Origin: Patescibacteria group bacterium
GTDB taxonomy: Bacteria > Patescibacteriota > Patescibacteriia > UBA9570
DNA: 64,000 nt
Direction of reading: 5' to 3'
Assembly (NCBI GenBank): GCA_041665365.1
Contig: JBAYIY010000004.1
Location: 8,610 to 72,609, forward strand
Each line of letters begins with the position of its first letter. Position 1 is the stretch's first letter. Below are positions 36,883 to 63,040 of the stretch, piece after piece. The notes below the pieces were generated by a model. That model was given only the letters and a program-made list of their open reading frames with translations. It was not told where the DNA came from and did not search any database. The translations under genes were made by a program, and so were the position numbers.

Positions 36883-36924
36883 TATACTTTTAAAGAGCGC
36901 TGCCGAAGTATTGGGGCGCTTTTT

Positions 36925-38238
36925 GTGCATAGATCAACGCTTGTTTGGTTGTCATGGTTAATCTTTATGGCCGGGGTGTGGCATATACCCCAACTAATTA
37001 TCTTTTTAGTAGGTTGTGGTTTTGTCACCAGCTTAATTGGCTGGAAACGTTATGTGTTGTTGGGTTGGTTAATGGGATGTGCCGCCATCGGGGTGGCTTA
37101 TTATGATCAGTTTTTTGTTGACCCAATATATTTAGACGGAGCGAAATTTAATGACACAGTGTTAGTGGATCGTTTACCGGTTTTGCATGAAGGTAGTCAG
37201 CGTTTGGTAGTTGTTACCAAAGAACAACAACATCTGCAACTCGATGCTGACTTGTATCCGGAATATCGTTATGGTGATGTGATAAATCTTAGATGCACCA
37301 TTCGGTTACCTAAACAAATCGAGGGATTTGCTTATGATAAATATTTAGCTCGGTTTCATATTCAAGCTTTATGTGATTATCCAACCACCGCGTTCGTTGC
37401 TACCAACCAAGGTAACAAAATAATTACTAGCATTTATGAGTTTAGAAATAATTTAAGGAAACGGGTTGAGAGTTTATGGCACGAACCGGCCGCGTCATTA
37501 TTATTAGGTGTGTTGATTGGCGAACAAGATACGATTCCTATTTCTATTTATACTAGTTTTCAGCGGGCTGGGGTGGTGCACATTTTAGTTGTGTCCGGCA
37601 TGCACGTGTTGTTGTTGGTGCAATTATTAACCAGTTTTACTAAATGGTTGCCAAAATTTTATCAAACATTAGTGATAGTTTTAGCCTTAACGGCTTTTTG
37701 TGTGCTAACCGGTTTTTCCGCCACCGTCATTCGCGCCACGGTGATGGGATCAATTCCGTTATTAGGTAGATTTATTGGTCGACCACATCGCATTCATCTG
37801 ACGTTAACCTGGGCGGCTGGAGTAATTACTCTGGTGAATCCATATATCTTAGTACACGATGTTGGTTTTCAATTATCGTTTTTAGCCACTTTAGGTTTGG
37901 TGTATATGACGCCGTTTGTTAAACCATTTACCAAATGGTTACCGGAAAAATTTGAATTACGCGATACCGTCACCACTACCTTAGCCGCCACTACCACCAC
38001 AGCACCGTGGATTGGTTATACTTTTGGTACTTGGTCTAATGTGGCCATGCTATCAAACATCGTGGTGCTGCCAACGTCGAATCTCATGTTATTTGCCGGC
38101 GGTGTCATCACAGCCCTGTCTGTATTATTTCCAAATCTAGCGCAAATGTTAGCGACATTATTGGAAGTGATTATAAATTTACTTGTGCAATATGTTGATT
38201 GGTGTGCCGCATTGCCTTATGCCTATATTAAGTGGTAA
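36925..38238 (+). CDS. comEC: ComEC/Rec2 DNA-uptake channel, membrane part (DUF4131 plus competence domain)
   Basis: Polytopic membrane protein. 'GVVHILVVSGMHV' is the typical ComEC competence-domain motif. Confidence 0.75.
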   Translation: MHRSTLVWLSWLIFMAGVWHIPQLIIFLVGCGFVTSLIGWKRYVLLGWLMGCAAIGVAYYDQFFVDPIYLDGAKFNDTVLVDRLPVLHEGSQRLVVVTKEQQHLQLDADLYPEYRYGDVINLRCTIRLPKQIEGFAYDKYLARFHIQALCDYPTTAFVATNQGNKIITSIYEFRNNLRKRVESLWHEPAASLLLGVLIGEQDTIPISIYTSFQRAGVVHILVVSGMHVLLLVQLLTSFTKWLPKFYQTLVIVLALTAFCVLTGFSATVIRATVMGSIPLLGRFIGRPHRIHLTLTWAAGVITLVNPYILVHDVGFQLSFLATLGLVYMTPFVKPFTKWLPEKFELRDTVTTTLAATTTTAPWIGYTFGTWSNVAMLSNIVVLPTSNLMLFAGGVITALSVLFPNLAQMLATLLEVIINLLVQYVDWCAALPYAYIKW

Positions 38239-39080
38239 AAAATATGTTTACAAAAATAAATAAATTGGTCATTTTAATCTGTGTTGGAGTGGCGCTGTAT
38301 TATTTTTATCAGCAATCTTTACCGGGTAATCTGACTGGTTCGTTTGTAGCATTTTTAGATGTTGGACAAGGCGATGCCATTTATATTCGTACCAGTAATG
38401 GGAGCGATGTGTTGATTGACGGTGGACCGGATCGTAAAATTCTCGAGCAGTTACCCAAAGTGTTAGCGCCACAAGACAATACCATTGAACTGATGTTACT
38501 CACTCATCCGGATGCCGATCATATCGATGGTCTGATTGAAGTGGTGAAGCGGTATAGTGTGAAACAAATTATCACCACAGCCTTGCCAGCCGAAAAATCA
38601 GACTATAAAGAATTATTAAACTTAATCGAAACAAAAAATATTCAACACACCGTAGTACAACAGGGGAATAAAATTGTGTTGGGTGAGCAAGATGATATCG
38701 ATATTTTATACCCTGAAGCGGATACACCTTTGACCACTTTAAGTACCAATAATACTTCATTGGTCGCTGAATATCATTATAAAAATCAAACTACGGAAAA
38801 AACGATCTTATTGGTGGGTGATGCCGAAACTCCAGTGGAGGATGAATTACTCAAACAAAATTTATTGCATGACGTCGATATTTTAAAAGTTGGTCATCAT
38901 GGTAGCAAAACGTCATCCTCAGAAGCATTCTTACAAAAAATTACACCGGAGTTGTGTATCATCGAAGTGGGAAAAGATAATTCGTATGGTCATCCGCACG
39001 CTGAGGTGGTACATAGGTTACAACAGTATTGTGAGATTAAAAGAACTGATGACTGGGGGAATATCGTGATTAACAATTGA
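38232..39080 (+). CDS. comEC: ComEC C-terminal metallo-beta-lactamase domain, encoded as a separate ORF overlapping the previous one by 7 nt
   Basis: 'LLTHPDADHIDGL' (HxHxDH), 'LKVGHHGSKTSSS'. N-terminal TM anchor. Confidence 0.75.
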   Translation: MVKNMFTKINKLVILICVGVALYYFYQQSLPGNLTGSFVAFLDVGQGDAIYIRTSNGSDVLIDGGPDRKILEQLPKVLAPQDNTIELMLLTHPDADHIDGLIEVVKRYSVKQIITTALPAEKSDYKELLNLIETKNIQHTVVQQGNKIVLGEQDDIDILYPEADTPLTTLSTNNTSLVAEYHYKNQTTEKTILLVGDAETPVEDELLKQNLLHDVDILKVGHHGSKTSSSEAFLQKITPELCIIEVGKDNSYGHPHAEVVHRLQQYCEIKRTDDWGNIVINN

Positions 39081-39215
39081 CCCCCACAATAATATTATAT
39101 ATACTGTCTTGAAGTGCTTGTTAGTTTTTGAGATTAACGGTTATTATCCTGTTATATAAAGGATTACTATTAGCCTCAAAAACTAAGCACCAACTTAGTA
39201 ATTAATTACAAAAAT

Positions 39216-40394
39216 ATGCGTAAAGTCTTCACATCTGAGTCAGTCACCGAGGGTCATCCCGATAAAATGGCTGATCAAATTTCCGATGCGGTGCTCGATG
39301 CCATTTTAGCCCTTGATCCAAAGGGGCGAGTGGCTTGCGAAACTTATTTAACCAATGGTGTGTGTTTGGTGGGTGGAGAGGTAACTACCTCTGCCAAGAT
39401 TGATGTCCCAAACTTAGTGCGCGCCGTCATTAAAGATATTGGTTATGCCAAATCCGATTATGGGTTTCATTGGGAAACGTCTGGTTTGATGGTAACAATA
39501 AAAGAGCAATCGCCTGACATTGCCATGGGTGTGGATAGTATTAAAGACCAACAAGAAGATCTGGCTAATTTAGGGGCAGGTGACCAAGGCCTGATGTTTG
39601 GTTATGCCTGTAATGAAACGAAAGAATTAATGCCATTACCAATTGTTTTGGCGCATAAATTAGCCAAACGCTTAGCAGAAGTGCGCAAAAAAAATATTAT
39701 TAAAGGTTTGCGCCCAGATGGTAAAAGTCAGGTTACGGTAGAATATGACGAAAATGATCAACCGGTGCGGGTTCGGTCAGTGTTAATTTCAGCACAGCAT
39801 AATCCAGAATTATCGGTTAAAAAACTCAAGCCGCAGATTATTAAACAGGTAATCAAAGCAGTTATTCCAAAAAACTTGTTAGATAAAGATACGCTATATT
39901 ATGTTAATCCAACTGGTCGATTTGTGATTGGTGGGCCACAAGGCGATACTGGTTTAACCGGCCGCAAGATTATTGTGGATACCTATGGTGGTTATGCCCG
40001 CCATGGTGGCGGTGCTTTTTCTGGCAAAGATCCCAGTAAAGTTGATCGCACCGGCAGTTACGCCGCGCGCTGGATTGCAAAAAATATTGTGGCGGCTAAA
40101 TTAGCCTCACGCGCTGAAGTGCAAGTAGCCTATGCCATCGGTATGGCCGAACCGTTATCGGTGCGCGTTGATACGTTTGGTACCGGCGTAGTTGGAGACG
40201 ATATTCTAGCTGACGCTGTACAACAAGTGTTTGATTTACGTCCCGGCATGATTATTAAAGCACTAAATTTACGTCAGCCAATTTATAAACAAACCGCGGC
40301 CTATGGTCATTTTGGTCGAAACGATTTAAAACTACCTTGGGAACAAACCAATCGTATTATCCAACTTAAACAAGCCGTGAAGAAATTACAATAA
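39216..40394 (+). CDS. metK: S-adenosylmethionine synthetase
   Basis: '[25 protein letters not shown]', '[23 protein letters not shown]'. Confidence 0.95.
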
Positions 40395-41359
40395 TGTCGG
40401 TTATCGTGTCAGGCTCAATTGCGTTCGATCGCATCATGGATTTTCCTGGAAAATTTTCTGACCATATTCTGCCTAATAAAATTCATAATCTCAATGTCAG
40501 TTTTGGTCTAGATAAATTATCCATCGAGTTTGGTGGTACCGCCGGTAATATCGCTTATACACTATCATTATTTGGAGAAAAACCCAGTATTGTTGGTAGT
40601 GTCGGTCATGATTTTGCTCCCTACAAAAAGCATCTTATCAAACACCATATCAATCTTCGGGACATTCGTGTAATTCCAAAAGAAACCTGTGCCACCGCTC
40701 ACATTATTACCGACCAAGGTGATAATCAAATAGCTGGTTTTCATTTCGGTGCCATTAGTTATCCGGCCGTGTCAGCACAGATCGTAACAAAACAAACCAA
40801 ATTAGGTATTATAGCGGCTGGTAATCTTGCTGATATGATGAAACTATCCGAGCAATATCGCCATAATCATGTTCCGTTTATTGTCGATCCAGGACAACAA
40901 CTTACCTGGCTAACCGGAGCACAATTAACCTATTTATTAAATGGTGCTCACACCTTGGTGGTAAATGATTATGAACTGGCTGTGGTTCAAAAAAAATTAA
41001 TGTCTGTAGAGACACGCCATGGCGTGTCTCTACAGAATAAATCGTCTCTACAAAATTTGACCCAATTGGTTGTCACCAAAGGTGAAAAAGGCGCCGATTG
41101 GTTTGTGGGTGGAAAACGCTATGTTTTGCCGGTGGCTAAACCCACCCGGGTATTAGATCCAACCGGGGCAGGTGATGCCTACCGCAGTGGCATAATTCTT
41201 GGTATACTCCGCCAGTGGTCACCCGAGCAAGCTGGTCGTGTGGCCGCTTTATGTGCGACGTATGCCATCGAACAATACGGCACACAAAACCACACGTTTA
41301 CAAAAACACAATTTAAAAAACGCTATTATAAAAATTTTAAACATAATATAATTATTTAA
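40394..41359 (+). CDS. PfkB-family carbohydrate/nucleoside kinase, likely adenosine kinase given the metK/ahcY context
   Basis: 'NDYE' (NxxE motif). 'DPTGAGDAYRSG' anion-hole motif. Confidence 0.7.
   Translation: MSVIVSGSIAFDRIMDFPGKFSDHILPNKIHNLNVSFGLDKLSIEFGGTAGNIAYTLSLFGEKPSIVGSVGHDFAPYKKHLIKHHINLRDIRVIPKETCATAHIITDQGDNQIAGFHFGAISYPAVSAQIVTKQTKLGIIAAGNLADMMKLSEQYRHNHVPFIVDPGQQLTWLTGAQLTYLLNGAHTLVVNDYELAVVQKKLMSVETRHGVSLQNKSSLQNLTQLVVTKGEKGADWFVGGKRYVLPVAKPTRVLDPTGAGDAYRSGIILGILRQWSPEQAGRVAALCATYAIEQYGTQNHTFTKTQFKKRYYKNFKHNIII
41003..41036. repeat. 34-nt perfect palindrome (tctgtagagacacgcc|atgg|cgtgtctctacaga) inside the adoK coding sequence, in frame (encodes SVETRHGVSLQ). A duplicated half-arm 'cgtctctaca' follows at 41044-41053.
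   Basis: Exact reverse-complement symmetry verified. Same arm family as 11753-11794. Confidence 0.75.
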
Positions 41360-41365
41360 TCGATA

Positions 41366-41396
41366 GGTAGAGACGTGCCGCCGGCACGTTTCTACC
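41366..41396. repeat. Imperfect palindrome ggtagagacgtgcc-gccggc-ggcacgtttctacc between adoK and ahcY
   Basis: One mismatch in the 14-bp arms. Family core GTAGAGACG. Confidence 0.6.
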
Positions 41397-41418
41397 GAGT
41401 GTATCAATTAACCATCAT

Positions 41419-42678
41419 ATGAAAAATTACGACGTCAAGGATCTCAAATTAGCCGATGGTGGTAAACAACGCATTGAATGGGCCGACCATGATATGCCCG
41501 TCTTACGCGCCATTCGTGACCGATTTTCTAAACAACAACCACTCAAAGGCATGACGATGTCGTGTTGTCTACACGTCACAGCCGAAACTGCGAATTTAAT
41601 GCGCACCCTGCAAGCCAGTGGCGCCGATGTGGTGCTCTGTGCTTCAAATCCTTTATCCACTCAAGATGATGTGGCAGCTGCGTTAGTGAAACACTACAAC
41701 ATTCCAGTGTTTGCTATTACTGGTGAAAATAACGCCTCATATTATAAGCACTTACAAGCAGCCGTCGCGCATAAACCCAATGTCACTATGGATGATGGCG
41801 CCGATTTAGTGAGTGCGATCCTAAAAGATCACCCTGAGTTGCATAATAAAATCGTCGCTTCCATGGAAGAAACCACCACTGGTGTTATTCGCTTACGCGC
41901 CATGGAAAAAGATGGTGTCTTGAAATTTCCTGTTGTGGCCGTAAATGATGCCGCCTGCAAACATTTTTTTGATAATAGATATGGTACTGGTCAATCAACC
42001 ATTGATGGTATCGTGCGTGCCACCGATGTGTTGTTAGCCGGTTCAACTTTTGTGGTAGCCGGTTATGGCTGGTGTGGCCGCGGTTTAGCCGATCGTGCCC
42101 GTGGTATGGGAGCTAACGTGATTGTGACAGAAGTGGATCCAATTAAAGCGTTAGAAGCGGTGATGGATGGTTTCCGCGTCATGCCGATGTTAGAAGCTGT
42201 GAAACAAGCCGATATTATTTGTACCGTGACTGGTAATATTAATGTATTAGACACTAAACATTTTCAAGCCATGAAGGATGGTGTGTTAGTAGCCAATTCA
42301 GGGCACTTCAATGTTGAGATCAATCTTGATAATCTAAAAAAACTTAGTAAATCGGTAGAACGGGTGCGTGAGTTTGTAGAAGCCTACACTTTAAAAACCG
42401 GTAAAATTGTTCATGTGCTGGGTGAAGGCCGCTTAGTAAATTTGGCCGCCGCCGAAGGTCATCCCGCTTCTGTGATGGATATGAGTTTTGCCGTGCAAGC
42501 TCTCACTACCGAATGGGCGATTAAGAATCATAAAACCCTCACGGCTCAAGTCTATAACGTACCGGAACAAATCGATGATAGTGTCTCCCGCTTAAAACTT
42601 AAAACCATGGGCGTTAAATTAGAACAACTTACTCCAGAACAAAAAAAGTATCTGTCTTCCTGGGAAATGGGGACATAG
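41419..42678 (+). CDS. ahcY: Adenosylhomocysteinase
   Basis: '[17 protein letters not shown]', NAD-binding '[10 protein letters not shown]'. 419 aa. Confidence 0.95.
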
Positions 42679-42736
42679 GGTGAGGAAGTGACATGCATAA
42701 TCACCTTATTTCATAAGGGTATTATAGTCATACTTG

Positions 42737-42766
42737 CAAATTGCTCTTTCATGAGCAATTTGTTTG
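42737..42766 (+). terminator. Intrinsic terminator after ahcY (caaattgctc-tttcat-gagcaatttg-tttg)
   Basis: 10-bp perfect stem, 6-nt loop, then a T-run. Confidence 0.6.
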
Positions 42767-42800
42767 AAGGTAGTCATAGTCTGTCCGAATCGTTCGCCTC

Positions 42801-42829
42801 TTGACATCAATTTCATGTACTAGTACACT
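42801..42829 (+). promoter_or_regulatory. Sigma70-like promoter (TTGACA-17-TACACT) for the trpR-like gene, overlapped by the 12-nt palindrome tgtactagtaca (42816-42827) and bracketed by ctgtcc/ggacag inverted repeats
   Basis: Read directly from the sequence. Confidence 0.4.
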
Positions 42830-42838
42830 AGGACAGAT

Positions 42839-43093
42839 ATGAACGATACGCAGCGGTACAAGAAAAATTTAATTCACTTTCTCACCAAGATTGATCGGCC
42901 TGAATTTATGGCCGCCGTGCTTAATGATCTGTTGACTCCTGGTGAGTTAGCCGAAATTGCTAAACGCTTAGAAATTATTACATTATTAAAACGCGGCGTC
43001 AGTCAACGAGCCATCAGCCAACAACTGGGTGTTGGTATTGCCACCGTCACGCGCGGTGCACGTCTTTTGGCCACATCAAAACACTGGCAGTGA
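42839..43093 (+). CDS. TrpR-like DNA-binding protein, YerC/YecD family
   Basis: 'LLTPGELAEIAKRLEIITLLKRGVSQRAISQQLGVGIATVTRGARLL' is a TrpR/YerC-type HTH. Confidence 0.65.
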   Translation: MNDTQRYKKNLIHFLTKIDRPEFMAAVLNDLLTPGELAEIAKRLEIITLLKRGVSQRAISQQLGVGIATVTRGARLLATSKHWQ

Positions 43094-43121
43094 TTTGTTT
43101 GTTGGCCAGAGGGAGACACAC

Positions 43122-43295
43122 ATGTCACATGTGCATCAATTCATCCTCGTCGTCGATCAGAACACCTCCACCGCTGTTATGCGTTGTGATGACTGTGGTG
43201 AGGAACGTCCGGTTGATGTCGTGGTGCCGGAGGAGACTGATTCTCAGGAAACTGATAGCGCTGAAGATGATGATTTCGGTGTGCTCTGCTGGTAG
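43122..43295 (+). CDS. Small acidic protein (57 aa) with a CxxC pair
   Basis: An ATG with a purine-rich stretch (gggagacacac) upstream. 'RCDDCGEERP'. Acidic tail. Confidence 0.35.
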   Translation: MSHVHQFILVVDQNTSTAVMRCDDCGEERPVDVVVPEETDSQETDSAEDDDFGVLCW

Positions 43296-43313
43296 TGGCT
43301 CCTTCATTCAAGT

Positions 43314-43346
43314 CCTGGAGTAGGTGATGCATTCATCTACTCCAGG
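43314..43346. repeat. Hairpin (cctggagtag...ctactccagg, 10-bp stem). Not a GTAGAGAC-family member.
   Basis: Inverted repeat read directly. No T-tract follows. Confidence 0.4.
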
Positions 43347-43403
43347 CACTATACCCCTCTGATAATAATTGACTAAATCAAAAAAAACTGATATTTTTTC
43401 ATT

Positions 43404-43568
43404 ATGAATGTACAGCTAAACGATCCAACTTTTGATGAATTGTGCGAAAAAATTGCTCAGGGCAAAGCCACACCTAGTGACATGGAAGCGGCGTTTAAAT
43501 CTTTGAATAGTGACATTGATGCCTTTTCAGCAGATGTCCAAGATCAGCTTTATAAGAATAAAAAATGA
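43404..43568 (+). CDS. Small protein (54 aa), translationally coupled (ATGA overlap) to the following 421-aa gene
   Basis: ORF 'MNVQLNDPTFDELCEKIAQGKATPSDMEAAFKSLNSDIDAFSADVQDQLYKNKK'. Its stop overlaps the start at 43565. Confidence 0.4.
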   Translation: MNVQLNDPTFDELCEKIAQGKATPSDMEAAFKSLNSDIDAFSADVQDQLYKNKK

Positions 43569-44830
43569 GCCACGAAAAAACTCGTCCACCGTTACCACGA
43601 CGAAGTGAGCCAAGGCAAGATACACCAAGGACAGGTGAGGCTACACCTGAAACGTTGCGGGCTTATCTTGATCATCTGGCTGAATCCAGCCGCCGTTTTG
43701 ACAGTGCTTTGACGCATTATCACACTTTATTGCAAGAACAAGATCAAGCCGAAGGAAATTTAATAACGCTGGAGCAACAATATCAAAATGAACAACGATT
43801 TGCGTTACTTAAAGCTAAGGCAACAAAGCTAGCCTGGGCGACAATACGTTATGTCACCTCTAGTACCATTGTAGGAGCAGGCAGTGGTGCAGCAGCCCAT
43901 ATGTTAAGTGGCGATCCGTCTTTCACTATTTTAGCTAGTGCTGGTGGAGCCATGGTTGGATCAGCGCTAGAGTTTGGTTTATCACATCTGGAAGAAACTA
44001 ATGATTACTCAGATAAATTTTTTGAGTTATATGAGCCGACGCAAGCATATATGCAAGATAAAAAACGGCGTGAACAAAATAAAGACGATAACCCTACCAA
44101 CCGTGAGGCCGAAATTAAATTGTTAGTAGAACAACTATCTGCTTTACAAACAGACATCGCTAACCTTGAAAAAGAAATTGATGATATCGGCAGTAGCGGC
44201 CAGGCCTTATTCAAAGACCCACGAGCACCGCTTCCCACTGCAGATCCAGCACGGTCAGAAGCTGAGGCGGCGGTGCGAGCTTTGGCGGAACATTTACGCA
44301 CAGCTGGCCAACGTTTAAATGAACTCTTAGCACAGTATTTTGAAATGACCGTGGTGGCCGAGAGTGCTGAACATTATTTGGCGGCACGTCAACAAATTTA
44401 TGATCGTAGTAAGGCAGCCGTGCAAATACGAGTGACTGCGCGCCAAGCTTGGGAGATGTTGAAAACAGCTCATATGACTCTCAGTGCAGCTGGTATTTTA
44501 GGGATGGCTGGCTATATCTATAATGCAGGTCAACCAGGTTCTAATGTACCTATGGCGGTATTAGGTGGAGCGGTCGGATCAGCCATAGGTTGGTTTCAAA
44601 TTTCTCGTTTGGAGAAAAAAGTTTGGCATAAAAATATACCCCATGGTCAATACGAGATTAGTGATCAATTAGCGGTGCGAGAAGATTATCAGTTGGCCAC
44701 TGATCCAGCCTTACAAGAGGCCGAAGCACTGTTAACTGAGGCACAATTACACCGGCAGCAAATGCAAGCTGAACAAGCTAAATTATCTGCCGAGCTTGAG
44801 GCCTTCATGGCTAAGTATCCAATGAAGTGA
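43565..44830 (+). CDS. Hypothetical 421-aa protein with long coiled-coil segments and four glycine-zipper-like (GxxxG/SxxxG) hydrophobic stretches, possibly membrane-inserting. Its GC content is higher than its neighbours.
   Basis: 'VGAGSGAAAHMLSG', 'ASAGGAMVGSALEFG', 'AAGILGMAGYIYNAG', 'AVLGGAVGSAIGWF'. Heptad-like Q/E/L-rich stretches. Confidence 0.45.
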   Translation: MSHEKTRPPLPRRSEPRQDTPRTGEATPETLRAYLDHLAESSRRFDSALTHYHTLLQEQDQAEGNLITLEQQYQNEQRFALLKAKATKLAWATIRYVTSSTIVGAGSGAAAHMLSGDPSFTILASAGGAMVGSALEFGLSHLEETNDYSDKFFELYEPTQAYMQDKKRREQNKDDNPTNREAEIKLLVEQLSALQTDIANLEKEIDDIGSSGQALFKDPRAPLPTADPARSEAEAAVRALAEHLRTAGQRLNELLAQYFEMTVVAESAEHYLAARQQIYDRSKAAVQIRVTARQAWEMLKTAHMTLSAAGILGMAGYIYNAGQPGSNVPMAVLGGAVGSAIGWFQISRLEKKVWHKNIPHGQYEISDQLAVREDYQLATDPALQEAEALLTEAQLHRQQMQAEQAKLSAELEAFMAKYPMK

Positions 44831-44846
44831 CATATTTAAATTTCAT

Positions 44847-44875
44847 TTGACAGCACTAATTTTTTGTAGTATCAT
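44847..44875 (+). promoter_or_regulatory. Sigma70-like promoter (TTGACA-17-TATCAT) upstream of the Bro-N gene
   Basis: Read directly. Confidence 0.4.
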
Positions 44876-44923
44876 CATCAATGATAGCGCCAACCAGAGC
44901 GCTTTTTATTTATAAACAATCCT

Positions 44924-45736
44924 ATGTCACCATCTAAAATTGCCTTATTTAAAGGTAAACAAATCAGAAAAACGTTCTATCACAAGGAATGGTGGTTTGT
45001 TATTAATGATGTAATCGAGTCTCTGACAGACTCCAGTGATCCGGCTCAGTACTTTAAACGTTTAAAATCTAGAGATGAGGAGCTAGCGGATCTGATCAAC
45101 AAAGGAGGGGTACAATTTGTACCACCCCTTATGCTGGCCATAGATACTACAGGAGGTAAACAAAAAATGTATTGTTGGCATACAGAAGGCCTCTTTCGTC
45201 TGGTTCAATCTATATCGTCACCAAAAGCTGAACCCTTTAAACGATGGTTAGCTAGAGTAGGTTATGAGCGCATTCAAGAAGTAGAAAATCCAGAATTGGC
45301 GACTAAACGAACTCGGATGTTGTACAAACTTAAGGGCTATAGTTCAGCCTGGATCGAAAAACGCCTTCGTGGTATGGCCATCCGTGAAGAATTAACCGAT
45401 GAATGGAAAAATCGCGGTGCTTCCGAGCAGCAAGATTATGAAATCTTAACAGCAGAAATTTCTAAGTCTACCTTTGGAGTAACACCACATGAGTACAAAA
45501 AACTCAAAGGTTTGAAACGTCAAAATCTACGTGATCATATGAATGACTTTGAACTGATTTTTAATATGCTTGGTGAACGCACAACCACAGAAATTCATCG
45601 TCTAGAAAATTCACAAGGTGTTCCAAAACTACGTAAAGACGCGAGAGCTGGTGGAGACGTTGCTGGTAATGCTCGACAACACTTAGAAAAACGCTTGGGT
45701 CGATCGATTGTGTCAAAAAATAACTTTTTAAAATAA
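44924..45736 (+). CDS. Bro-N domain protein (phage antirepressor-like) with an unassigned C-terminal half
   Basis: N-terminal 'FKGKQIRKTFYHKEWWFVINDVIESL...WHTEGLFRLVQSISSPKAEPFKRWL' matches the BRO-N pattern. Confidence 0.6.
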   Translation: MSPSKIALFKGKQIRKTFYHKEWWFVINDVIESLTDSSDPAQYFKRLKSRDEELADLINKGGVQFVPPLMLAIDTTGGKQKMYCWHTEGLFRLVQSISSPKAEPFKRWLARVGYERIQEVENPELATKRTRMLYKLKGYSSAWIEKRLRGMAIREELTDEWKNRGASEQQDYEILTAEISKSTFGVTPHEYKKLKGLKRQNLRDHMNDFELIFNMLGERTTTEIHRLENSQGVPKLRKDARAGGDVAGNARQHLEKRLGRSIVSKNNFLK

Positions 45737-45760
45737 TGTGATTCGTGATACATTCCTTCT

Positions 45761-45922
45761 ATGAATACTCTTACAACAACAAAAATTTGTCTGGCCTGTC
45801 GGCATGTATCCACCAATACTACCGACACCGCCTGCATGCAATGTGGTATGATGCTGGAAGAACAGTGTCCAAATTGTAAATTACCTAAATCGGAATGTGT
45901 ATGCCCAGAGAACCAGAACTAA
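45761..45922 (+). CDS. Small Cys-rich Zn-ribbon-like protein (53 aa), not in the supplied ORF track
   Basis: 'MNTLTTTKICLACRHVSTNTTDTACMQCGMMLEEQCPNCKLPKSECVCPENQN' carries four CxxC-type pairs. Codons counted directly. Confidence 0.4.
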   Translation: MNTLTTTKICLACRHVSTNTTDTACMQCGMMLEEQCPNCKLPKSECVCPENQN

Positions 45923-47013
45923 AACGGTTGCCACCTACTCATACTGAAAGAACTCCCCGTGAAGAATCAGGACAAATACAACCACGTGAGGTTGAAGCGC
46001 GGTCTTGGTGGAAAAAATTAATTGAACGTCATGTTAGCGAAGCATCAATTCCGGGTGTGGCCAATGGTATTGAACGTAGTACTTATGTGGCACCTAATAA
46101 ACCGGAAGATGAAGCTGTAATTATTCGTGAACGCATACTGTCAGGTAAATTAGTCGGTGTCACTCAAGTTCAGTTTAATCCAAAATCTGGTAGCGTTAGT
46201 GAGTATCGTCGCGAAACACCACAGGGGCAACCTTTGCGTGTGGTAGAAACCAATGACGCTGGTTGGTTGGATCAAGTCTATTCATATCAGGCACCCGGCA
46301 GAATTGCTCTGCAACAATATGATCATGAGCATAATGTGGTCTGGGATGGCACAATTACTCAAAGAGATGGGAGAGAAGTTGAAACCAGGCAAGCTACAGC
46401 CAACACTTTTGGTCAGATAGCAAGTGGTGTATTAGCAGATTGTAAAAGTATGGTGATTCAACGTGTGGGCACACGAGTTGATGGTGAAATCATAGAAGAT
46501 ATTATGGGTTTTAAACCGAACCAAGTTAAATTTACTGATGCCAGTAAGGGGCATGTCAATGTACACCGTGAAACTGTTATTATAGGAGGCAAACTTAGAA
46601 AAGAAAAAGTCACTGAATCAGTTGGTTCGGAAAGAAAAAGATATGTTACTTATACGAAACGACATGAGAGTGAATTAGATAGGCAAGTTGATGAAACCAG
46701 TGGTAATGTTATGAGATCTTATGAAATTAAAAAGCGCTACGATGATAGAGGCTCCATGGTCGAAACCAGAGAAACTACTGAGACGTTTACCGCCTCTGGT
46801 AAATTAGATCATAAAGAACTAAAGTTTAGTATAGGCGGCCGTGACTCTGTAGCACAGACCAACTATCAATATGACCAAAACTATCAATTGGTACTCATTG
46901 AAGAAATCGGTTTTGATGGTGTCACTAAACGCTATCATCGTGCCCCAAGAGGTACAAAAATACCAGAAGAAAAAGAACATTCTAGTGAATCTGGTTTTAT
47001 ATTGGTTGAATAA
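45895..47013 (+). CDS. Hypothetical charged protein (372 aa). The start is uncertain; it may begin at the TTG at 45927 after the Zn-ribbon ORF.
   Basis: Long ORF. No recognisable motif. Lys/Glu/Arg-rich. Confidence 0.45.
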   Translation: MCMPREPELKRLPPTHTERTPREESGQIQPREVEARSWWKKLIERHVSEASIPGVANGIERSTYVAPNKPEDEAVIIRERILSGKLVGVTQVQFNPKSGSVSEYRRETPQGQPLRVVETNDAGWLDQVYSYQAPGRIALQQYDHEHNVVWDGTITQRDGREVETRQATANTFGQIASGVLADCKSMVIQRVGTRVDGEIIEDIMGFKPNQVKFTDASKGHVNVHRETVIIGGKLRKEKVTESVGSERKRYVTYTKRHESELDRQVDETSGNVMRSYEIKKRYDDRGSMVETRETTETFTASGKLDHKELKFSIGGRDSVAQTNYQYDQNYQLVLIEEIGFDGVTKRYHRAPRGTKIPEEKEHSSESGFILVE

Positions 47014-47040
47014 TAATCAATCTGTGTTATACTGTTTTTC

Positions 47041-48033
47041 ATGTTAACACCAGGTAAAATCATTTTAGATCACGCTTTGCAAAACCATTATGCGGTTGGC
47101 GCGTTTAACGCCAATAATATGGAGCAAGTGCAAGCCATTATCGATGCGGCAGCGGAAACGCAATCGCCCGTGTTTATTCAAGTGTCGCGCGGGGCATTAA
47201 AATATTCCCGCTTAACTTATTTACGCAATATCATTTTAGCCGCCGCCGAAGAACATCCGGAAATACCTTTGGCTATGCACTTAGATCATGGCAACGGTTT
47301 GGAAGTAGTTAAAACCGCTATTGGTTTGGGTTTTACCTCTGTGATGATCGATGGTTCTTTAGATGAATCCGGGAAAAAGGCCTTGAGTTTTGAAGAAAAT
47401 TTAGCAGTCACTAAAGCGGTGGTTGAATATGCTCATCCGTTTGGGGTGAGTGTAGAAGCAGAATTAGGTACAATTGGTGGAGTCGAAGATGGCGCTGGTG
47501 TGAAAAGAATTTTAGTAACCGATCCAGCTCAAGCGGAAGATTTTGTCAAACAAACCTCGGTTGATTCTCTAGCCATCGCCATTGGTACTTCGCACGGGGC
47601 TTACAAATTTAAAGAGGCTTGTGTGTTGCAACATGAAGTAGTGGAAGAAATTCATCGACGCTTACCAAACTTACCTTTAGTGATGCACGGGTCATCGAGT
47701 GTGCCAGCAGAATTAGTGGCGATTGTGAATAAATACGGTGGCAATATGCCTAATAGTAAAGGTGTGGATATACCGCAGCTACAACAAACTATTAAGTTTG
47801 GTGTGAGTAAAGTAAATGTTGATACCGATGGTCGCATCGTGGTAACTGGCGCCATTCGTAAACAGTTCGCTGAACATCCCGAACAGTTTGACCCACGGGA
47901 ATATTTAGCTCCAGCGCGTGATGCCTTGCGGGACATGGTCAAAGGGCGCATGATCGCTTTTGGTTGTGCTAATCAAGCTCCAAAAATTAACCAAATTACT
48001 TTAGAACAAGCTAAACAATTTTATGCGCGTTAA
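47041..48033 (+). CDS. fba: Class II fructose-bisphosphate aldolase
   Basis: 'HLDHG' Zn site, 'AIGTSHGAYKF'. 330 aa. Confidence 0.9.
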   Translation: MLTPGKIILDHALQNHYAVGAFNANNMEQVQAIIDAAAETQSPVFIQVSRGALKYSRLTYLRNIILAAAEEHPEIPLAMHLDHGNGLEVVKTAIGLGFTSVMIDGSLDESGKKALSFEENLAVTKAVVEYAHPFGVSVEAELGTIGGVEDGAGVKRILVTDPAQAEDFVKQTSVDSLAIAIGTSHGAYKFKEACVLQHEVVEEIHRRLPNLPLVMHGSSSVPAELVAIVNKYGGNMPNSKGVDIPQLQQTIKFGVSKVNVDTDGRIVVTGAIRKQFAEHPEQFDPREYLAPARDALRDMVKGRMIAFGCANQAPKINQITLEQAKQFYAR

Positions 48034-48640
48034 AATTATTACCGTTATTTGTGTGCTGGCCATCATGGTTGGGTTAATTGCTTTAATTCAATGGAAAGCG
48101 TCAACTTCATCACCGGTACAAGGATCAACCGCTGATCCGGTGCGCGGCGACGACACCGCTAAAGTTTCCATTCAGGAATACAGTGATTTTCAATGCCCGG
48201 CGTGTAAGGCCTTAGAGCCAAACTTAAAAAAAGTCTTACAGGAATATCCCGGTCAGGTAAAGTTATCTTATAATGATTTTCCGTTACGTCAGGTACACCC
48301 GTCTGGTGCTTTAGCCGCCGAAGCTGGCCAATGTGCATATGCGCAAAATCGATTCTGGGATTACCATGATTTATTATTCCAACGCCAAAGTGAGTGGCCG
48401 ATAGCGGATAATGTTGAAACCACTTTAGCTGATTATGCGGCTGAGTTGGGGCTTGATCGAGATAAATTTCAACAGTGTTTAAATGACGATTCGACTCTGG
48501 CTAGTATTTCTGAAGATGAAACTGAAGGTAATAATGCCAAAATTACTTCCACACCAACCGTCTTTGTAAACGGAACTCGTTTAGTTGGACCAACCTATGA
48601 TCAACTCCATGCGGAAGTGGCAAAACAACTCGGTCAATAA
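48023..48640 (+). CDS. Membrane-anchored DsbA-like thiol:disulfide oxidoreductase (paralog 1)
   Basis: N-terminal TM. 'CPAC' thioredoxin active site. DsbA-fold length. Confidence 0.75.
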   Translation: MRVKIITVICVLAIMVGLIALIQWKASTSSPVQGSTADPVRGDDTAKVSIQEYSDFQCPACKALEPNLKKVLQEYPGQVKLSYNDFPLRQVHPSGALAAEAGQCAYAQNRFWDYHDLLFQRQSEWPIADNVETTLADYAAELGLDRDKFQQCLNDDSTLASISEDETEGNNAKITSTPTVFVNGTRLVGPTYDQLHAEVAKQLGQ

Positions 48641-49082
48641 GTATCTAGTATTTGGCCTACGGGTTGTCATTGGTTTGATTTTTGTGATCGCCGGTTTAAG
48701 TAAAACAACCGCGCCAATTGCAGAGTTTATTGGTTTAGCCAGACAGTGGAATATTTTACCAGAACCGTATGTCACCATTTACGCATTTTTATTGCCCTGG
48801 GTAGAACTAGTGTTTGGTTTAACTTTATTATTCGGTGCTTGGTCTCGATTAAGTGCCTTTATTGTGTTGTTAATGTTGCTGTCTTTTTTAATCGCTATTG
48901 GCATCAACATTTCTCGAGGAACGTTATTGCAAGACTGTGGTTGTTTTGGCGGTTGGTTTGAATTAGGTGCAACCTTCCAAGAATTATTCTGGCGAGATGC
49001 AGCTATGTTTGTTGGTACCCTATGGATAATGTTTATGCCAAAGCCATTGTGGTTATCGGTGGATCAATGGTTGACATCATAA
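48609..49082 (+). CDS. DoxX-family membrane protein
   Basis: 'VFGLRVVIGLIFVIAGLSK' and three or four TM helices. DoxX partners with DsbA-like proteins in known thiol-oxidoreductase complexes. The start is uncertain (48585 or 48609). Confidence 0.55.
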   Translation: MRKWQNNSVNKYLVFGLRVVIGLIFVIAGLSKTTAPIAEFIGLARQWNILPEPYVTIYAFLLPWVELVFGLTLLFGAWSRLSAFIVLLMLLSFLIAIGINISRGTLLQDCGCFGGWFELGATFQELFWRDAAMFVGTLWIMFMPKPLWLSVDQWLTS

Positions 49083-49132
49083 AATAATCATTTATACTAC
49101 ATACAGTAGTAATTAACTAACGCACGCGTTTT

Positions 49133-49192
49133 ATGAAAAAAATTATGGTCGGTGAAGGCTGTGACTGCGGCGGAAAATGCGGTTCTTGCTAA
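49133..49192 (+). CDS. Tiny Cys-rich peptide (19 aa: MKKIMVGEGCDCGGKCGSC), not in the ORF track. Possible metal-binding peptide or RiPP precursor.
   Basis: The ATG and stop were counted directly. Six Cys in 10 residues. Lies immediately upstream of a BlaI/CopY-family repressor. Confidence 0.3.
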   Translation: MKKIMVGEGCDCGGKCGSC

Positions 49193-49200
49193 AAGCCTAT

Positions 49201-49226
49201 AACAGGGGTGATTAATCACCCCTGTT
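49201..49226. promoter_or_regulatory. 26-nt perfect palindrome aacaggggtgattaatcacccctgtt between the Cys-peptide ORF and blaI. Candidate operator or terminator.
   Basis: Self-complementary. It shares the TGATTAATCA centre with the 59.6-62.9 kb palindromes. Confidence 0.5.
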
Positions 49227-49231
49227 CTATT

Positions 49232-49609
49232 ATGTTACATACCTTAAAACCATTAGGTGAACTAGAACAACATATCATGGATGTGATGTGGGGTAATGAT
49301 TTTAATACCGTGCGGGCTGTTTATGAATCTATGCAAAACCACCGGGATATTGCTTACACTACAGTGATGACAACGATGGATCGGCTCACCAAAAAAGGTG
49401 TCTTACAACGCGTTAAAGTGGGTAAGGCTTATCAATACAAAACAGCGCAAACCGAAACTGAATTGTGTTTACATACCACTAAAGTTATGATTGACATGTT
49501 GGTCAGTAGATATGGTGATTTAGCCATTGCGCAATTTGTTGATACAGTTGATCAAATTGATCCGAAAAAATTCGCCGCTTTAAAAAAAATCGTCAATGAA
49601 CATCGCTAA
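49232..49609 (+). CDS. BlaI/MecI/CopY-family winged-helix repressor
   Basis: 'LGELEQHIMDVMW...AYTTVMTTMDRLTKKGVL' matches the Penicillinase_R family pattern. Start moved to the ATG at 49232. Confidence 0.75.
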   Translation: MLHTLKPLGELEQHIMDVMWGNDFNTVRAVYESMQNHRDIAYTTVMTTMDRLTKKGVLQRVKVGKAYQYKTAQTETELCLHTTKVMIDMLVSRYGDLAIAQFVDTVDQIDPKKFAALKKIVNEHR

Positions 49610-50477
49610 GGCCATACACCGTTTTCTCATCTCAAATTGCATTTTAGTGCTGACTACTATTTGGTTAACACTTAGTTTGGGTAATGTACTTAAACCATTT
49701 TTGCAAAACATGGTGGATCGATGGTTGGGCTATAAACAAATGTGTGGTTGTGCTAATTACGCTTTGTTTCCAACCGATACCGCCGGACGGTTTGTTCTAG
49801 GAGTATTTATCATCGCCGTCATTGGTTTAATTATTTTTAGTCTTAATGCGATCATTGCTTTTATTCGCACAAAACTTTATCAAACAAAACTATCATCTAA
49901 TCATAAACGTCATACTTTTTATCAAGGTATACAGATAAATTATATTGATAGTAATGAAACGCTAGCCGTTTGTGTTGGTTACATCCGGCCACAGGTTTAT
50001 ATTAGTCGCGGATTAATTGCGCGTTTAGATGGTTTTGAATTGTTAGCCGTCATTCAACATGAAGTGGCGCATGCTAAATCGTTTGATCCTTTAAAACGAT
50101 TATTTATTGGAGCGGTACCAATTTGGTATAAACAATATCAACGTTATGTGACCGCCCAAGAAGTGTTGGCGGATAATGCCGTGGTTAATACTACATCGAT
50201 TCGGTCGGCGTTTGTTAAAGTAGTCGAAGAACTGTGTGTCACACCAGGTGTGTCGGCGTCATTTTTTTCCACCAGTCAGGCACGCATCAATGTTTGGTTG
50301 GGCGAACGGCTTACTTTGCCGAGTAGTCGCAGCGTTGTCATTGGGTTAAGTATCATCATTACCATGTTGTTGTTTAGTTATCGCACGTTTGCGGCCGAGC
50401 CGGAGATGCAGGCTTTTGGGCAATGTTTAACGGAACAAAATATGTGTCGAACCATCATGACCTATGTGGTATCATAG
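49596..50477 (+). CDS. BlaR1/MecR1-like M56 peptidase membrane protein (signal-transducing antirepressor type)
   Basis: Polytopic N-terminus. 'HEVAHAKSFD' HExxH motif. Overlaps the blaI stop. Confidence 0.7.
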   Translation: MNIAKAIHRFLISNCILVLTTIWLTLSLGNVLKPFLQNMVDRWLGYKQMCGCANYALFPTDTAGRFVLGVFIIAVIGLIIFSLNAIIAFIRTKLYQTKLSSNHKRHTFYQGIQINYIDSNETLAVCVGYIRPQVYISRGLIARLDGFELLAVIQHEVAHAKSFDPLKRLFIGAVPIWYKQYQRYVTAQEVLADNAVVNTTSIRSAFVKVVEELCVTPGVSASFFSTSQARINVWLGERLTLPSSRSVVIGLSIIITMLLFSYRTFAAEPEMQAFGQCLTEQNMCRTIMTYVVS

Positions 50478-58895: not shown

Positions 58896-58897
58896 AT

Positions 58898-59976: not shown

Positions 59977-60095
59977 ACCGGGACGTCGGTTATTAATCTC
60001 GGTCTATCTGTGAGCCTTATCCAGGGGACGGTTGGGGCAATGATGCTCTGATCACACTGGGTGGGGTTTGGTCACAAAAACCGAAAGGAGAGGCC

Positions 60096-61835: not shown

Positions 61836-61962
61836 CCAGCCCGAGCCATTAGCGTGTGGCTCGTAAAAGATATCACGCCAGTTTCTCGTCGGTTTGAGCC
61901 ATAGTCATTACTGTGGTTCGCCGACATTCGTGTTTCAACAAACAACAATTCAAACAACAAAT

Positions 61963-61993
61963 TGTAGAGACGTCCCGCCGGGACGTCTCTACA
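61963..61993. repeat. Palindrome tgtagagacgtcccg-c-cgggacgtctctaca between the two high-GC genes
   Basis: 15-bp arms, verified. Confidence 0.75.
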
Positions 61994-62003
61994 GGGAGAT
62001 TTC

Positions 62004-62792: not shown

Positions 62793-62895
62793 TCAAAGAG
62801 TAGTAAGGCTCGATTTGGATAGGTGTGGTAGGCTTGACGCGTTGTCGTCGCCGCCACCCATACATCCATCTCGAGCCTTTTTTCGTATACAAAAT

Positions 62896-62955: not shown

Positions 62956-63040
62956 CAATTTGACAACAACAAAAAAATACCTTATTATCACCAGCATAAA
63001 GCGTTGCCAAAGTGATTGGGGACGCTTTTATTATCAGATT

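Follow-up and report, generated by a model that had tools for sequence, protein, structure and literature searches.

Between ahcY and the class II fba gene of a Patescibacteria (CPR) MAG contig lies a 4.4 kb block of seven ORFs. We analysed a 64 kb stretch of the contig around this block (the window); all coordinates refer to it, and all features described below are on its forward (+) strand. ahcY (TIGR00936, 1e-189), whose upstream neighbours are metK and a gene for a PfkB-type kinase, ends at position 42678. It is followed by a stem-loop (42736-42763; 11-bp stem then UUUG; MFE -15.1 kcal/mol, z = -4.3 relative to shuffled sequences) that probably terminates ahcY transcription and marks the left edge of the island. 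At the right edge of the insertion is a promoter-like site for fba, TTGAAT-16-TATACT (47006-47033), and the last ~15 bp before fba are similar to the sequence of a related contig, L088, in which the site is empty. All seven ORFs are found where the original prediction placed them, tightly packed on one strand. We group them into four modules, each of which has a promoter-like site at its 5' end; strong hairpins follow ahcY and the second ORF, cys57.

A TrpR-family repressor gene with a putative operator over its own promoter

The first gene, trpR84 (42839-43093), encodes an 84-aa TrpR-family helix-turn-helix repressor (PF01371 Trp_repressor, 2.9e-18; 66 bits, cut-off 27), annotated by NCBI as a "Trp family transcriptional regulator". 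The original prediction of a TrpR/YerC-like protein was right about the helix-turn-helix regulator, which is closer to true TrpR than to YerC-like proteins: the nearest solved structure is E. coli TrpR (1jhg, 6.9e-8), the YerC-like 3kor is a weaker match (1.9e-4), and the score against TIGR02531 (YerC-like) is under the cut-off. Alignment to E. coli TrpR structures indicates that the recognition helix, GIAT(V/I)TRG, is kept. TrpR homologues elsewhere are found in unrelated genomic contexts.

Upstream of trpR84 is a sigma-70-like promoter, TTGACA-17-TACACT (42801-42829; 10/12 consensus match), whose spacer and -10 hexamer are covered by a putative TrpR-type operator (42816-42831). The operator consists of a perfect 12-bp palindrome, TGTACTAGTACA (42816-42827), with no other exact copy in the window, plus a second CTAG 8 bp beyond the first (CTAG at 42820 and 42828); the palindrome had been predicted to overlap the regulator's promoter, and it does. 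The sequence GTACTAGTAC is also found 27 bp 5' of the gene for a 45%-identical CPR TrpR homologue (P0034) in three loci (L179, L180 and L181); the other 181 loci compared lack it. Since the putative operator overlaps the trpR84 promoter, its position implies that trpR84 may be autoregulated. We propose that a trpR84 dimer would bind TGTACTAGTACA/CTAG-8-CTAG over its own -10 hexamer, and that the bound repressor would shut off both trpR84 and the co-transcribed ORF, cys57.

cys57 (43122-43295; GGGAG ribosome-binding site) would encode a very acidic 57-aa protein (15 D/E), as predicted, with only one CxxC. It is annotated by JGI and not by NCBI, its 90%-identity cluster contains only itself, and we found no relatives in any compared locus or in viral contigs (IMG/VR). 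Being an orphan, cys57 is only a putative gene, and it may not be a real one. The trpR84-cys57 unit is closed by an inverted repeat with 14-bp arms (43314-43346) that forms a hairpin of -27.2 kcal/mol (MFE; z = -8.35).

Two conserved cassettes flank a Bro-N gene

The second module has a promoter-like site, TTGACT-17-TATTTT with an extended -10 TG (43369-43397), followed by s54 (43404-43568), which encodes a 54-aa acidic protein with an invariant motif, FD.LCEKIAQGKA.P. The end of s54 overlaps the start of p421 (43565-44830) in an ATGA, in keeping with the predicted translational coupling of the two genes. p421 encodes a 421-aa all-helical protein with two tandem repeats, each consisting of a long helix, a Gly/Ala/Ser-rich two-helix hairpin and a C-terminal helix; the two halves are 24% identical over 199 aa (z = 13.9). 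A search of 5.8 billion protein clusters turned up only three p421 homologues besides p421 itself (in L001, L002 and L003). All three have the internal duplication, and each has an s54 homologue directly upstream, making s54 the conserved partner of p421. In these three contigs the pair has unrelated neighbours and is accompanied by none of the other island genes; in L001, the neighbours look like signal-peptide-bearing secreted proteins or lipoproteins, and none matched a defence gene.

p421 had been predicted to have four glycine-zipper hydrophobic segments. The zipper hairpins are there (residues about 91-140 and 303-346, the latter including G334xxxG338xxxG342), but the segments are weakly hydrophobic (Kyte-Doolittle 19-residue maximum of 1.43). 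Structure prediction, which had been suggested for this protein, gave an all-helical model of low confidence (pLDDT 47.5), and we found no match to p421 in Pfam, PADLOC or the PDB, and no signal peptide by inspection of the sequence. The locally higher GC content that had been reported for p421 is unremarkable (0.445, versus a mean of 0.42 for the window and a standard deviation of 0.029 for island-sized stretches). We propose that p421 is a coiled-coil protein with an internal duplication, whose two glycine-zipper hairpins most likely attach it to the membrane on the cytoplasmic side, and that translational coupling would provide the small acidic s54 in a fixed ratio to it, perhaps as a partner or chaperone, or as an inhibitor. 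With these hydropathy peaks and this poor model, membrane insertion of p421 is uncertain.

The third module is a single gene, bro270 (44924-45736), with the best promoter-like site of the region, TTGACA-17-TATCAT (44847-44875; 11/12 consensus match), as expected from the prediction that this gene has a strong promoter of its own. Between this site and the start codon is a short GC hairpin followed by a T-run (44886-44903; MFE -7.7 kcal/mol, z = -3.1), which could be either a terminator for p421 or a leader element of bro270. The 270-aa protein has a Bro-N domain (PF02498, 8.3e-12), and matches over its full length (residues 3-269) the PADLOC model PDLC04920 (PDC-S13; 7.5e-101, 335 bits); it also belongs to phrog_15286 (1e-77). 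PDC families are phage-defence candidates, recognised by their location inside BREX, DISARM or type I RM loci (bioRxiv 10.1101/2024.01.29.577857). In IMG/VR, relatives of bro270 with 42-52% identity over the full or nearly full length occur at 13 loci, and there is one truncated match with 66% identity. One of two such loci that we inspected is near primase and terminase genes, and the other is near exonuclease and serine recombinase genes. The C-terminal half of bro270 is weakly similar to DinD (0.003), and we detected no C-terminal antirepressor domain of the KilA-C/ANT type; hence, the Bro-N part of the original "antirepressor-like" label stands, whereas the antirepressor part is not established. 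We take bro270 to be a DNA-binding Bro-N protein whose family is common to phages and to cellular loci embedded in restriction or BREX systems.

The fourth module has a weak promoter-like site, GTGTCA-16-AATAAT (45710-45737; 9/12 consensus match), and comprises zn53 (45761-45922) and p372 (45895-47013). zn53 is missing from every public annotation of the contig, as it was from the ORF track used for the original prediction, which recognised it as a gene; it is real and conserved, with homologues directly 5' of both p372 homologues. The 53-aa product has eight cysteines, all invariant in these homologues, arranged as three CxxC and one CxC rather than the four CxxC originally described, and probably binds two zinc ions. 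p372 is a highly charged 372-aa protein, as predicted (31% charged residues), with no hydrophobic segment and, on sequence inspection, no signal peptide. Structure prediction, again as had been suggested, gave a long antiparallel beta-hairpin meander; the AF2 model is all-beta, with a pLDDT of about 90 over residues 260-372. Its structural matches are generic beta-meanders (outer-membrane barrels, OspA, Rhs/teneurin and MORN) with TM-scores of at most 0.25, and p372 therefore has no global fold match. A profile search against 1.84 billion representative proteins recovered p372 itself and two others. For the same genome pair, dN is 0.54 for p372 and 0.10 for fba, a roughly fivefold faster divergence. 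We propose that this module pairs a two-zinc ribbon protein with a fast-diverging, soluble beta-hairpin-repeat protein that may provide a binding or recognition surface.

The s54-p421 and zn53-p372 cassettes are under purifying selection: dN/dS is 0.11-0.20 across the four genes (0.11 for p421, 0.14-0.18 for s54, and 0.16 for zn53 when comparing L004 with L005), indicating that they are real genes. The GC content of the island is 0.420 and its tetranucleotide signature is ordinary. Since this composition is indistinguishable from that of the genome, it gives no positive sign that the island was transferred recently.

The ahcY-fba junction varies among relatives

Over more than 13 kb, two related metagenome contigs, L088 and L086, are collinear with the window on both sides of the island (window positions 35050-42678 and 47041-48640). 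Their collinearity is broken only at the ahcY-fba junction, indicating that this is a genuine variable hotspot, and neither contig has the island genes, so that the original view of the block as an accessory insertion between housekeeping genes is borne out. In L088 the junction is empty, with about 22 bp separating ahcY (85% identity) from fba (80% identity). In L086 it is filled by a VapBC-type pair, an RHH gene and a PIN gene (PF01850, 8.8e-12). Another contig, L004, has a zn53-like gene, a p372-like gene and fba (86% identity), in that order, and lacks the other island genes. L005 has zn53-like and p372-like genes, an RHH-like gene (without a Pfam match of its own, and assigned by its likeness to the RHH gene of L086) and a PIN gene; the sequence 5' of its zn53 homologue resembles nothing in the window, Bro-N included. 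Thus, far from being syntenic across the lineage, the seven genes give way to junctions that are empty, carry VapBC or carry only zn53 and p372. That zn53-p372 adjoins fba in the closest relative too suggests that this pair is older than the rest of the island.

Discussion

We consider it moderately likely that the ahcY-fba junction is a lineage-specific variable hotspot, and that the island is a composite accessory insertion of four independently transcribed modules that have been separately gained and lost; the comparison covers three to five related contigs, mostly short, and differential loss from a bigger ancestral block would predict an identical pattern of presence and absence. From the VapBC pair that relatives carry at this site, together with the PDC-S13 match, we infer that the cargo serves inter-genome conflict, as defence against phages or mobile elements or as addiction. 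The case for an anti-phage role is circumstantial, built on association.

A different explanation, which we regard as unlikely although it fares best among the alternatives, is that these are lineage-specific cellular genes, for the cell envelope, cell division or host attachment of an episymbiotic CPR bacterium, that are ancestral, have been lost in some relatives and have no role in conflict. Orphan membrane and surface proteins abound in CPR genomes, which fits this explanation, as do the genome-like composition of the island, the purifying selection on every tested gene, the fact that zn53-p372 also borders fba in the closest relative, and the secreted or lipoprotein-like neighbours of s54-p421 in L001. 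Nonetheless, the distribution of the genes is very narrow and patchy, with about two or three homologues each besides the query among billions of proteins; the site is empty in L088 despite 85% ahcY identity; the divergence of p372 is about fivefold faster than that of fba; p421 and p372 lack recognisable signal peptides; and a toxin-antitoxin module and a phage-shared Bro-N gene occur at the same site.

It is improbable that the seven genes form a single anti-phage or abortive-infection system, with trpR84 as signal-sensing controller, p421 as membrane-disrupting effector, and bro270 and zn53/p372 as sensors. Glycine-zipper motifs occur in pore-forming proteins, and those of p421 are of this kind; the tight packing on one strand, the PDC-S13 match and the toxin-antitoxin module in relatives also accord with such a system. 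However, s54-p421 and zn53-p372 each occur elsewhere in the absence of the other genes, the genes beside TrpR homologues are unrelated, every module starts with a promoter-like site of its own, the -27 kcal/mol hairpin sets trpR84-cys57 apart from the downstream genes, and the operator sequence is confined to the trpR84 promoter within the window. A PADLOC-type scan of the kind that had been suggested matched bro270 alone, to a candidate family of single genes, and found no validated defence gene in the island. Of the proposed defence or abortive-infection module, then, a candidate gene survives; the genes are not one system, and their role in defence is not established. Least probable of all is the originally suggested degraded prophage or mobile-element remnant, with the Bro-N gene, the regulator and the membrane protein as its surviving immunity/lysis region: phages typically have small repressor-like and small acidic proteins among their early genes, and bro270 belongs to phrog_15286 and has IMG/VR relatives, of which the two inspected lie among phage-type genes, but the island has no integrase or recombinase, att-like direct repeats, tRNA target, phage structural or replication genes, or compositional anomaly, its modules occur separately in other genomes, and bro270 is the only tested gene with viral relatives (p421, p372, cys57 and zn53 have none in IMG/VR, and p421 and p372 none in 50,697 phage records).

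trpR84 is in the same Pfam family as E. coli TrpR, and the residues aligned with Thr44, Arg54, Arg84 and Gly85 of that protein are conserved. As in the E. coli trp, aroH and trpR operators, a CTAG-centred palindrome with two CTAG 8 bp apart overlaps the promoter; the putative trpR84 operator matches 14 of 18 positions of the E. coli trp operator, GAACTAGTTAACTAGTAC, and E. coli trpR is autoregulated, as the operator position suggests for trpR84. Unlike E. coli TrpR, trpR84 is just 84 aa long and scores below the cut-off of the TIGR01321 equivalog (53.6 versus 67.25), and its gene is in a CPR accessory block, with no trp or aro genes nearby, co-transcribed with an orphan acidic ORF. bro270 resembles PDC-S13 and phrog_15286 proteins in its N-terminal Bro-N domain, its full-length HMM match and its relatives in genuine phage contigs, but no RM or BREX genes adjoin it; DinD and the phage Ant antirepressors are more distant Bro-N comparisons. 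p421 is reminiscent of glycine-zipper and hairpin-anchored coiled-coil proteins, of which the chlamydial Inc proteins are an example: it has GxxxGxxxG in paired short helices with tight turns between them, and its hairpins are bordered by long predicted helices with basic outer flanks. It differs in having no detectable homology to such families, marginal transmembrane hydrophobicity, and an internal duplication and obligatory small partner gene that are specific to its own family. p372 differs from Rhs/YD-repeat shells, teneurin, OspA single-layer beta-sheets and MORN proteins in global fold, with no Pfam RHS or MORN match even at E<=1, and no toxin domain or sequence-level internal repeat.

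The RHH antitoxin and PIN toxin genes of VapBC modules are found at exactly the same junction in L086 and 3' of the p372 homologue in L005. None of the seven island proteins carries a known toxin or antitoxin domain, RHH and PIN included; the island's two coupled small-plus-large gene pairs have a similar two-gene layout, which by itself is not evidence for toxin-antitoxin function. Lastly, the junction, as sampled in four or five contigs, is like defence islands and integration hotspots in being a conserved site whose cargo differs among close relatives and includes a toxin-antitoxin module and a phage-defence candidate; it differs from them in that the island has neither a recombinase nor a mobile-element boundary, and no defence system that has been validated.

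A variable hotspot between ahcY and fba

The junction between ahcY and fba is a variable hotspot, at which accessory genes are inserted within a conserved backbone. The window is part of a 365-kb contig from a Patescibacteria (CPR) MAG, and between ahcY (adenosylhomocysteinase; 41419-42678; TIGR00936, 1e-189) and fba (class II fructose-bisphosphate aldolase; 47041-48033) we found all seven of the ORFs listed in the original prediction, each on the + strand: trpR84 (42839-43093, 84 aa), cys57 (43122-43295, 57 aa), s54 (43404-43568, 54 aa), p421 (43565-44830, 421 aa; NCBI locus tag WCV88_02735), bro270 (44924-45736, 270 aa), zn53 (45761-45922, 53 aa) and p372 (45895-47013, 372 aa). The gene said to be missing from the ORF track, zn53, is indeed absent from every public annotation of the sequence, and cys57 is missing from the NCBI annotation. 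There was no match to an Rfam family in the island.

Two related contigs, L086 and L088, were found by a metagenome scan using the neighbouring kinase gene (adoK), and both are collinear with the window from about position 35050 to the end of ahcY, and then again from fba on. In L088 (ahcY 85% and fba 80% identical), about 22 bp separate the ahcY stop codon from the fba start codon. In L086 (ahcY 83%, fba 75%), the junction contains a ribbon-helix-helix (RHH) gene overlapping a PIN-domain gene (PF01850, 8.8e-12), which is a VapBC-type toxin-antitoxin pair. In the closest relative as judged by fba (L004; 86%), homologues of zn53 and p372, in that order, precede fba; in another contig, L005, zn53-like and p372-like genes are followed by an RHH-like gene, which has no Pfam match of its own but whose product resembles the RHH protein of L086, and then by a PIN gene (PF01850, 3.4e-10). 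With the junction empty in L088, and holding VapBC in L086, zn53 and p372 in L004 and seven genes in the window, its cargo therefore differs among close relatives. The idea of an accessory block was thus borne out: the result was the opposite of seven genes conserved in synteny across the lineage.

The window's own species is not among the matches to ahcY listed from 185,579 species-representative genomes; those listed are at most about 70% identical and come mostly from Chloroflexota (Anaerolineae). Many of these relatives (L006-L085) also have the kinase-ahcY gene pair (39216-42678 in the window), so the methyl-cycle operon may have come to this CPR lineage from Chloroflexota, or be common to both. 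On the other side of the junction, the region downstream of fba (48023-50477) encodes a DsbA-like thioredoxin, a MauE/DoxX membrane protein and a BlaI-type repressor, with a 293-aa ORF overlapping the repressor gene downstream of it. This DsbA-like gene is syntenic in L086, and a second one adjoins lgt (58158-59665).

Composition of the island and its surroundings

The GC content of the island is 0.420, against a window mean of 0.42, and its tetranucleotide signature is ordinary, with 17.5% of same-size windows having a tetranucleotide distance at least as large. The higher local GC that had been attributed to p421 (0.445) lies inside normal variation. A far stronger foreign-DNA signature is found at 60000-63000, where GC rises sharply to 0.54-0.66 from a background of 0.42. 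This stretch has two ORFs with no Pfam match whose products resemble multi-pass membrane proteins (60096-61835, 579 aa; 62004-62792, 262 aa), and is followed by a RhuM-family gene (62825-63718; PF13310, 3e-48), at which GC falls to 0.34. Elsewhere in the window, the - strand carries a TPP riboswitch (22270-22362; RF00059, 62 bits, 9e-10) upstream of the gene for a solute-binding protein (21195-22232), with which it probably forms a thiamine uptake operon. The window starts with an ORF of 2214 aa (28-6672); CPR genomes often encode giant surface proteins.

Four modules with their own promoter-like sites

The distribution of homologues indicates that the seven genes are four modules (trpR84 and cys57; s54 and p421; bro270; zn53 and p372), each conserved separately. 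The s54-p421 pair occurs in three other contigs at 55-76% identity, always with the s54 homologue immediately upstream, among unrelated neighbours and with no other island gene. The zn53-p372 pair occurs in L004 and L005, where no Bro-N, p421 or TrpR gene lies upstream of it. Homologues of trpR84, no more than about 60% identical to it along most of their length, adjoin trpE/G or aro genes in Proteobacteria, or stand alone in another CPR lineage. Every module is preceded by a promoter-like site (42801-42829, 43369-43397, 44847-44875 and a weaker one at 45710-45737), and both ahcY and cys57 have a stable hairpin after them, of -15.1 and -27.2 kcal/mol respectively (z -8.4 for the second). The signals upstream of bro270 (44847-44923) stand in an unusual order: the best promoter match of the region, TTGACA-17-TATCAT, is followed by a hairpin and then the start codon. 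This GC hairpin with its T-run (44886-44903) is terminator-like, and could be a p421 terminator that overlaps the Bro-N leader, or an attenuator within that leader.

The s54-p421 and zn53-p372 gene pairs

Translational coupling of the 54-aa and 421-aa genes, as originally proposed, is consistent with the overlap between the s54 stop codon and the p421 start codon (ATGA). We found no significant match for p421 in Pfam, NCBIfam, PADLOC or the PDB, including a PDB profile search, and no match in phage and viral collections. The protein is an internal tandem duplication, with halves 24% identical over 199 residues (z = 13.9 versus shuffles), and all three homologues also show the duplication. Each half consists of a long helix, a tightly turning two-helix hairpin rich in Gly/Ala/Ser, and another helix. 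The predicted glycine-zipper motifs are present, among them an invariant G334xxxG338xxxG342 in the second hairpin, but the hydrophobicity claimed for these segments is marginal (maximum hydropathy 1.43). Structure prediction, which had been suggested for both large proteins, gave a poor AlphaFold model for p421 (pLDDT 47.5) and a beta-meander for p372. Given the marginal hydropathy and the poor model, we can only infer membrane anchoring of p421. Purifying selection acts on both genes, with dN/dS at 0.11 in p421 and at 0.14-0.18 in s54. Our best guess is that p421 would be a cytoplasm-facing, hairpin-anchored coiled-coil protein, produced in a fixed ratio with a small acidic partner.

We looked for a defence context around the s54-p421 pair in two contigs. 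There was no PADLOC match in L001, and nothing in L002 beyond a helicase of a generic type. The gene for this helicase (L002, 1-1116), which is Pif1/RecD-like and fused to a WYL domain (PF13280, 7.5e-8), lies directly upstream of the s54-p421 cassette; in defence loci, WYL domains frequently serve as ligand sensors. In L001, the third gene downstream of the p421 homologue encodes a 259-aa protein (14076-14855) that has an N-terminal helical segment ('...SNALKSYLDQLQYDRDQLSALQKRMQ...') whose composition resembles that of the p421 repeat, and this protein might be a diverged relative of the repeat unit.

Judging by its conservation, zn53 is a real gene: all eight of its Cys residues are invariant in three sequences, so that the paired Cys knuckles typical of zinc ribbons are conserved, and its dN/dS is 0.16. 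The Cys-rich gene that had been described as a Zn-ribbon with four CxxC motifs exists, but it has three CxxC and one CxC, and its match to Pfam DZR (0.027) is below the cut-off. Its partner, p372, is highly charged and has neither a hydrophobic segment nor a signal peptide. The predicted fold has about twenty antiparallel beta-strands, with pLDDT around 90 for residues 260-372, and a structure search returned generic beta-meander matches only (outer-membrane barrels, OspA single-layer sheets, Rhs/teneurin YD shells and MORN repeats), with TM-scores of at most 0.25. There are no sequence-level internal repeats in p372, and a PDB profile search gave nothing significant. Searching 1.84 billion representative proteins with a profile recovered only p372 itself, one homologue and one distant relative. 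For the same genome pair, dN is 0.54 for p372 and 0.10 for fba; p372 diverges fast, yet under constraint, with a dN/dS of 0.20 between L004 and L005. A reasonable reading is that p372 would provide a rapidly evolving binding surface, with zn53 as a small, putatively zinc-binding partner.

A Bro-N protein shared with phages

The assignment of bro270 to Bro-N holds, with a PF02498 match at residues 15-110 (46 bits versus a gathering score of 25.6; 8e-12), and sequence comparison establishes it as a Bro-N protein shared with phages. Its relatives, 42-52% identical over the full or nearly full length, are found in 13 IMG/VR contigs; in the two that we checked, their neighbours encode a primase and a large terminase subunit, or an exonuclease and a serine recombinase. 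As an antirepressor, the likeness originally proposed, or as a defence gene, bro270 is at most a candidate. No ANT/KilA-C C-terminal antirepressor domain was detected with Pfam, Ant PHROGs match N-terminal parts only (1e-8 to 1e-5), and the full-length match is instead to phrog_15286, of unknown function (1e-77). In PADLOC, bro270 matches PDC-S13 (PDLC04920; 7.5e-101), with residues 3-269 aligned to profile positions 4-267 of 286. We found no literature on PDC-S13, or on Bro-N in Patescibacteria.

What the hotspot may hold

Bacteria keep genes for conflict and for particular niches in variable hotspots. To our knowledge, very few such sites have been mapped in Patescibacteria, and little is known of the phage-defence repertoire of these bacteria. 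The original prediction offered two readings of the island, a degraded prophage or a defence/abortive-infection module. What remains is that the hotspot would hold conflict-type or niche-type cargo, a reading supported by VapBC at the same site in relatives and by the similarity of bro270 to PDC-S13. Alternatively, the seven may be cellular genes specific to this lineage and lost to varying degrees in its relatives; this neutral explanation fits both the island's native composition and the sharing of zn53-p372 with the closest relative.

As to defence, the PADLOC scan gave a full-length match of bro270 to a candidate family and no match for p421. A single integrated defence system is unlikely, since each module occurs independently of the others and has a promoter-like site of its own. 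We also think it improbable, albeit worth stating, that s54-p421 and zn53-p372 are two previously undescribed two-gene CPR conflict systems, toxin-antitoxin-like or abortive-infection-like, beside a PDC-S13 gene at a defence hotspot occupied in relatives by VapBC; p421 would then permeabilise or remodel the membrane unless restrained by s54, and p372 would recognise an invader under regulation by zn53. We reject a prophage, degraded or otherwise, because the seven ORFs include no integrase or recombinase and are flanked by conserved backbone, there are no att-like flanking direct repeats beyond chance-level short matches, no tRNA in the window, no significant match in the island to phage structural, packaging or lysis PHROGs (the best being a minor tail protein, E 0.11) and no compositional deviation, and only one of the seven genes, bro270, has phage relatives, with none for p421, p372, cys57 and zn53 in the phage or viral collections searched.

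The hotspot yields two compact, selectively maintained gene pairs that have almost no relatives anywhere and can both be cloned, one of them containing the unannotated zn53.

Comparison with known systems

The region is accessory, and is an ordinary variable hotspot with orphan cargo; it is of a familiar kind rather than a new mechanism. The PDC families are 145 candidate systems defined by their embedding in BREX, DISARM or type I RM loci (bioRxiv 10.1101/2024.01.29.577857). By contrast, bro270 has p421 and zn53 as neighbours, and there are no RM or BREX families among the seven island ORFs; the one RM-related PADLOC match is a weak one of bro270 itself to a type I specificity-subunit model (2.5e-4). 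The features of Rhs/YD-repeat proteins were not found in p372, which has no RHS_repeat HMM match, and whose structural likeness to them is local only (TM-score at most 0.16).

Another parallel to a known system concerns trpR84, which had been described as a TrpR/YerC-like HTH protein. It belongs to the TrpR family (PF01371, 66.2 bits, cut-off 27), its best solved relative is E. coli TrpR (7e-8), and the recognition helix, GIAT(V/I)TRG, is conserved. It scores below the trp operon repressor equivalog (TIGR01321; 53.6 bits, cut-off 67.25), and is clearly not YerC/YecD (TIGR02531; 24.3 bits, cut-off 42.2), the S. aureus YerC-like structure 3kor being a weaker match than TrpR. The 64-kb window contains neither trp nor aro genes. 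The second gene of this module, cys57, starts 28 bp further on, behind a good ribosome-binding site, and encodes one CxxC; it has no detectable homologue in any of the loci and collections searched, and so stays a candidate gene.

The promoter of trpR84, TTGACA-17-TACACT, contains the perfect palindrome TGTACTAGTACA at 42816-42827, in agreement with the original prediction of a palindrome overlapping this promoter. There is no second exact copy of TGTACTAGTACA in the 64 kb, and two one-mismatch sites were dropped as further operators because the genes in or beside them, for a TSP3-repeat protein and for Fpg and a UvrD-type helicase-nuclease, are unrelated. A second CTAG lies 8 bp beyond the first at the putative operator. 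The operator core, GTACTAGTAC, occurs once in each of three contigs ('Candidatus Buchananbacteria') that carry P0034, a TrpR homologue 45% identical to trpR84, where it is 27 bp upstream of the gene and just downstream of a TTGACA promoter; it was found in none of the 181 other loci searched. The palindrome closely resembles the E. coli trp operator, GAACTAGTTAACTAGTAC, with CTAG motifs 8 bp apart. Together, the palindrome, the core upstream of P0034 and the likeness to the trp operator make autoregulation of trpR84 by operator occupancy a well-supported prediction. As with E. coli TrpR, a CTAG-centred palindrome overlaps a promoter, and a TrpR-type repressor and its putative operator are conserved as a pair between CPR lineages, in a form closely resembling the E. 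coli pair.
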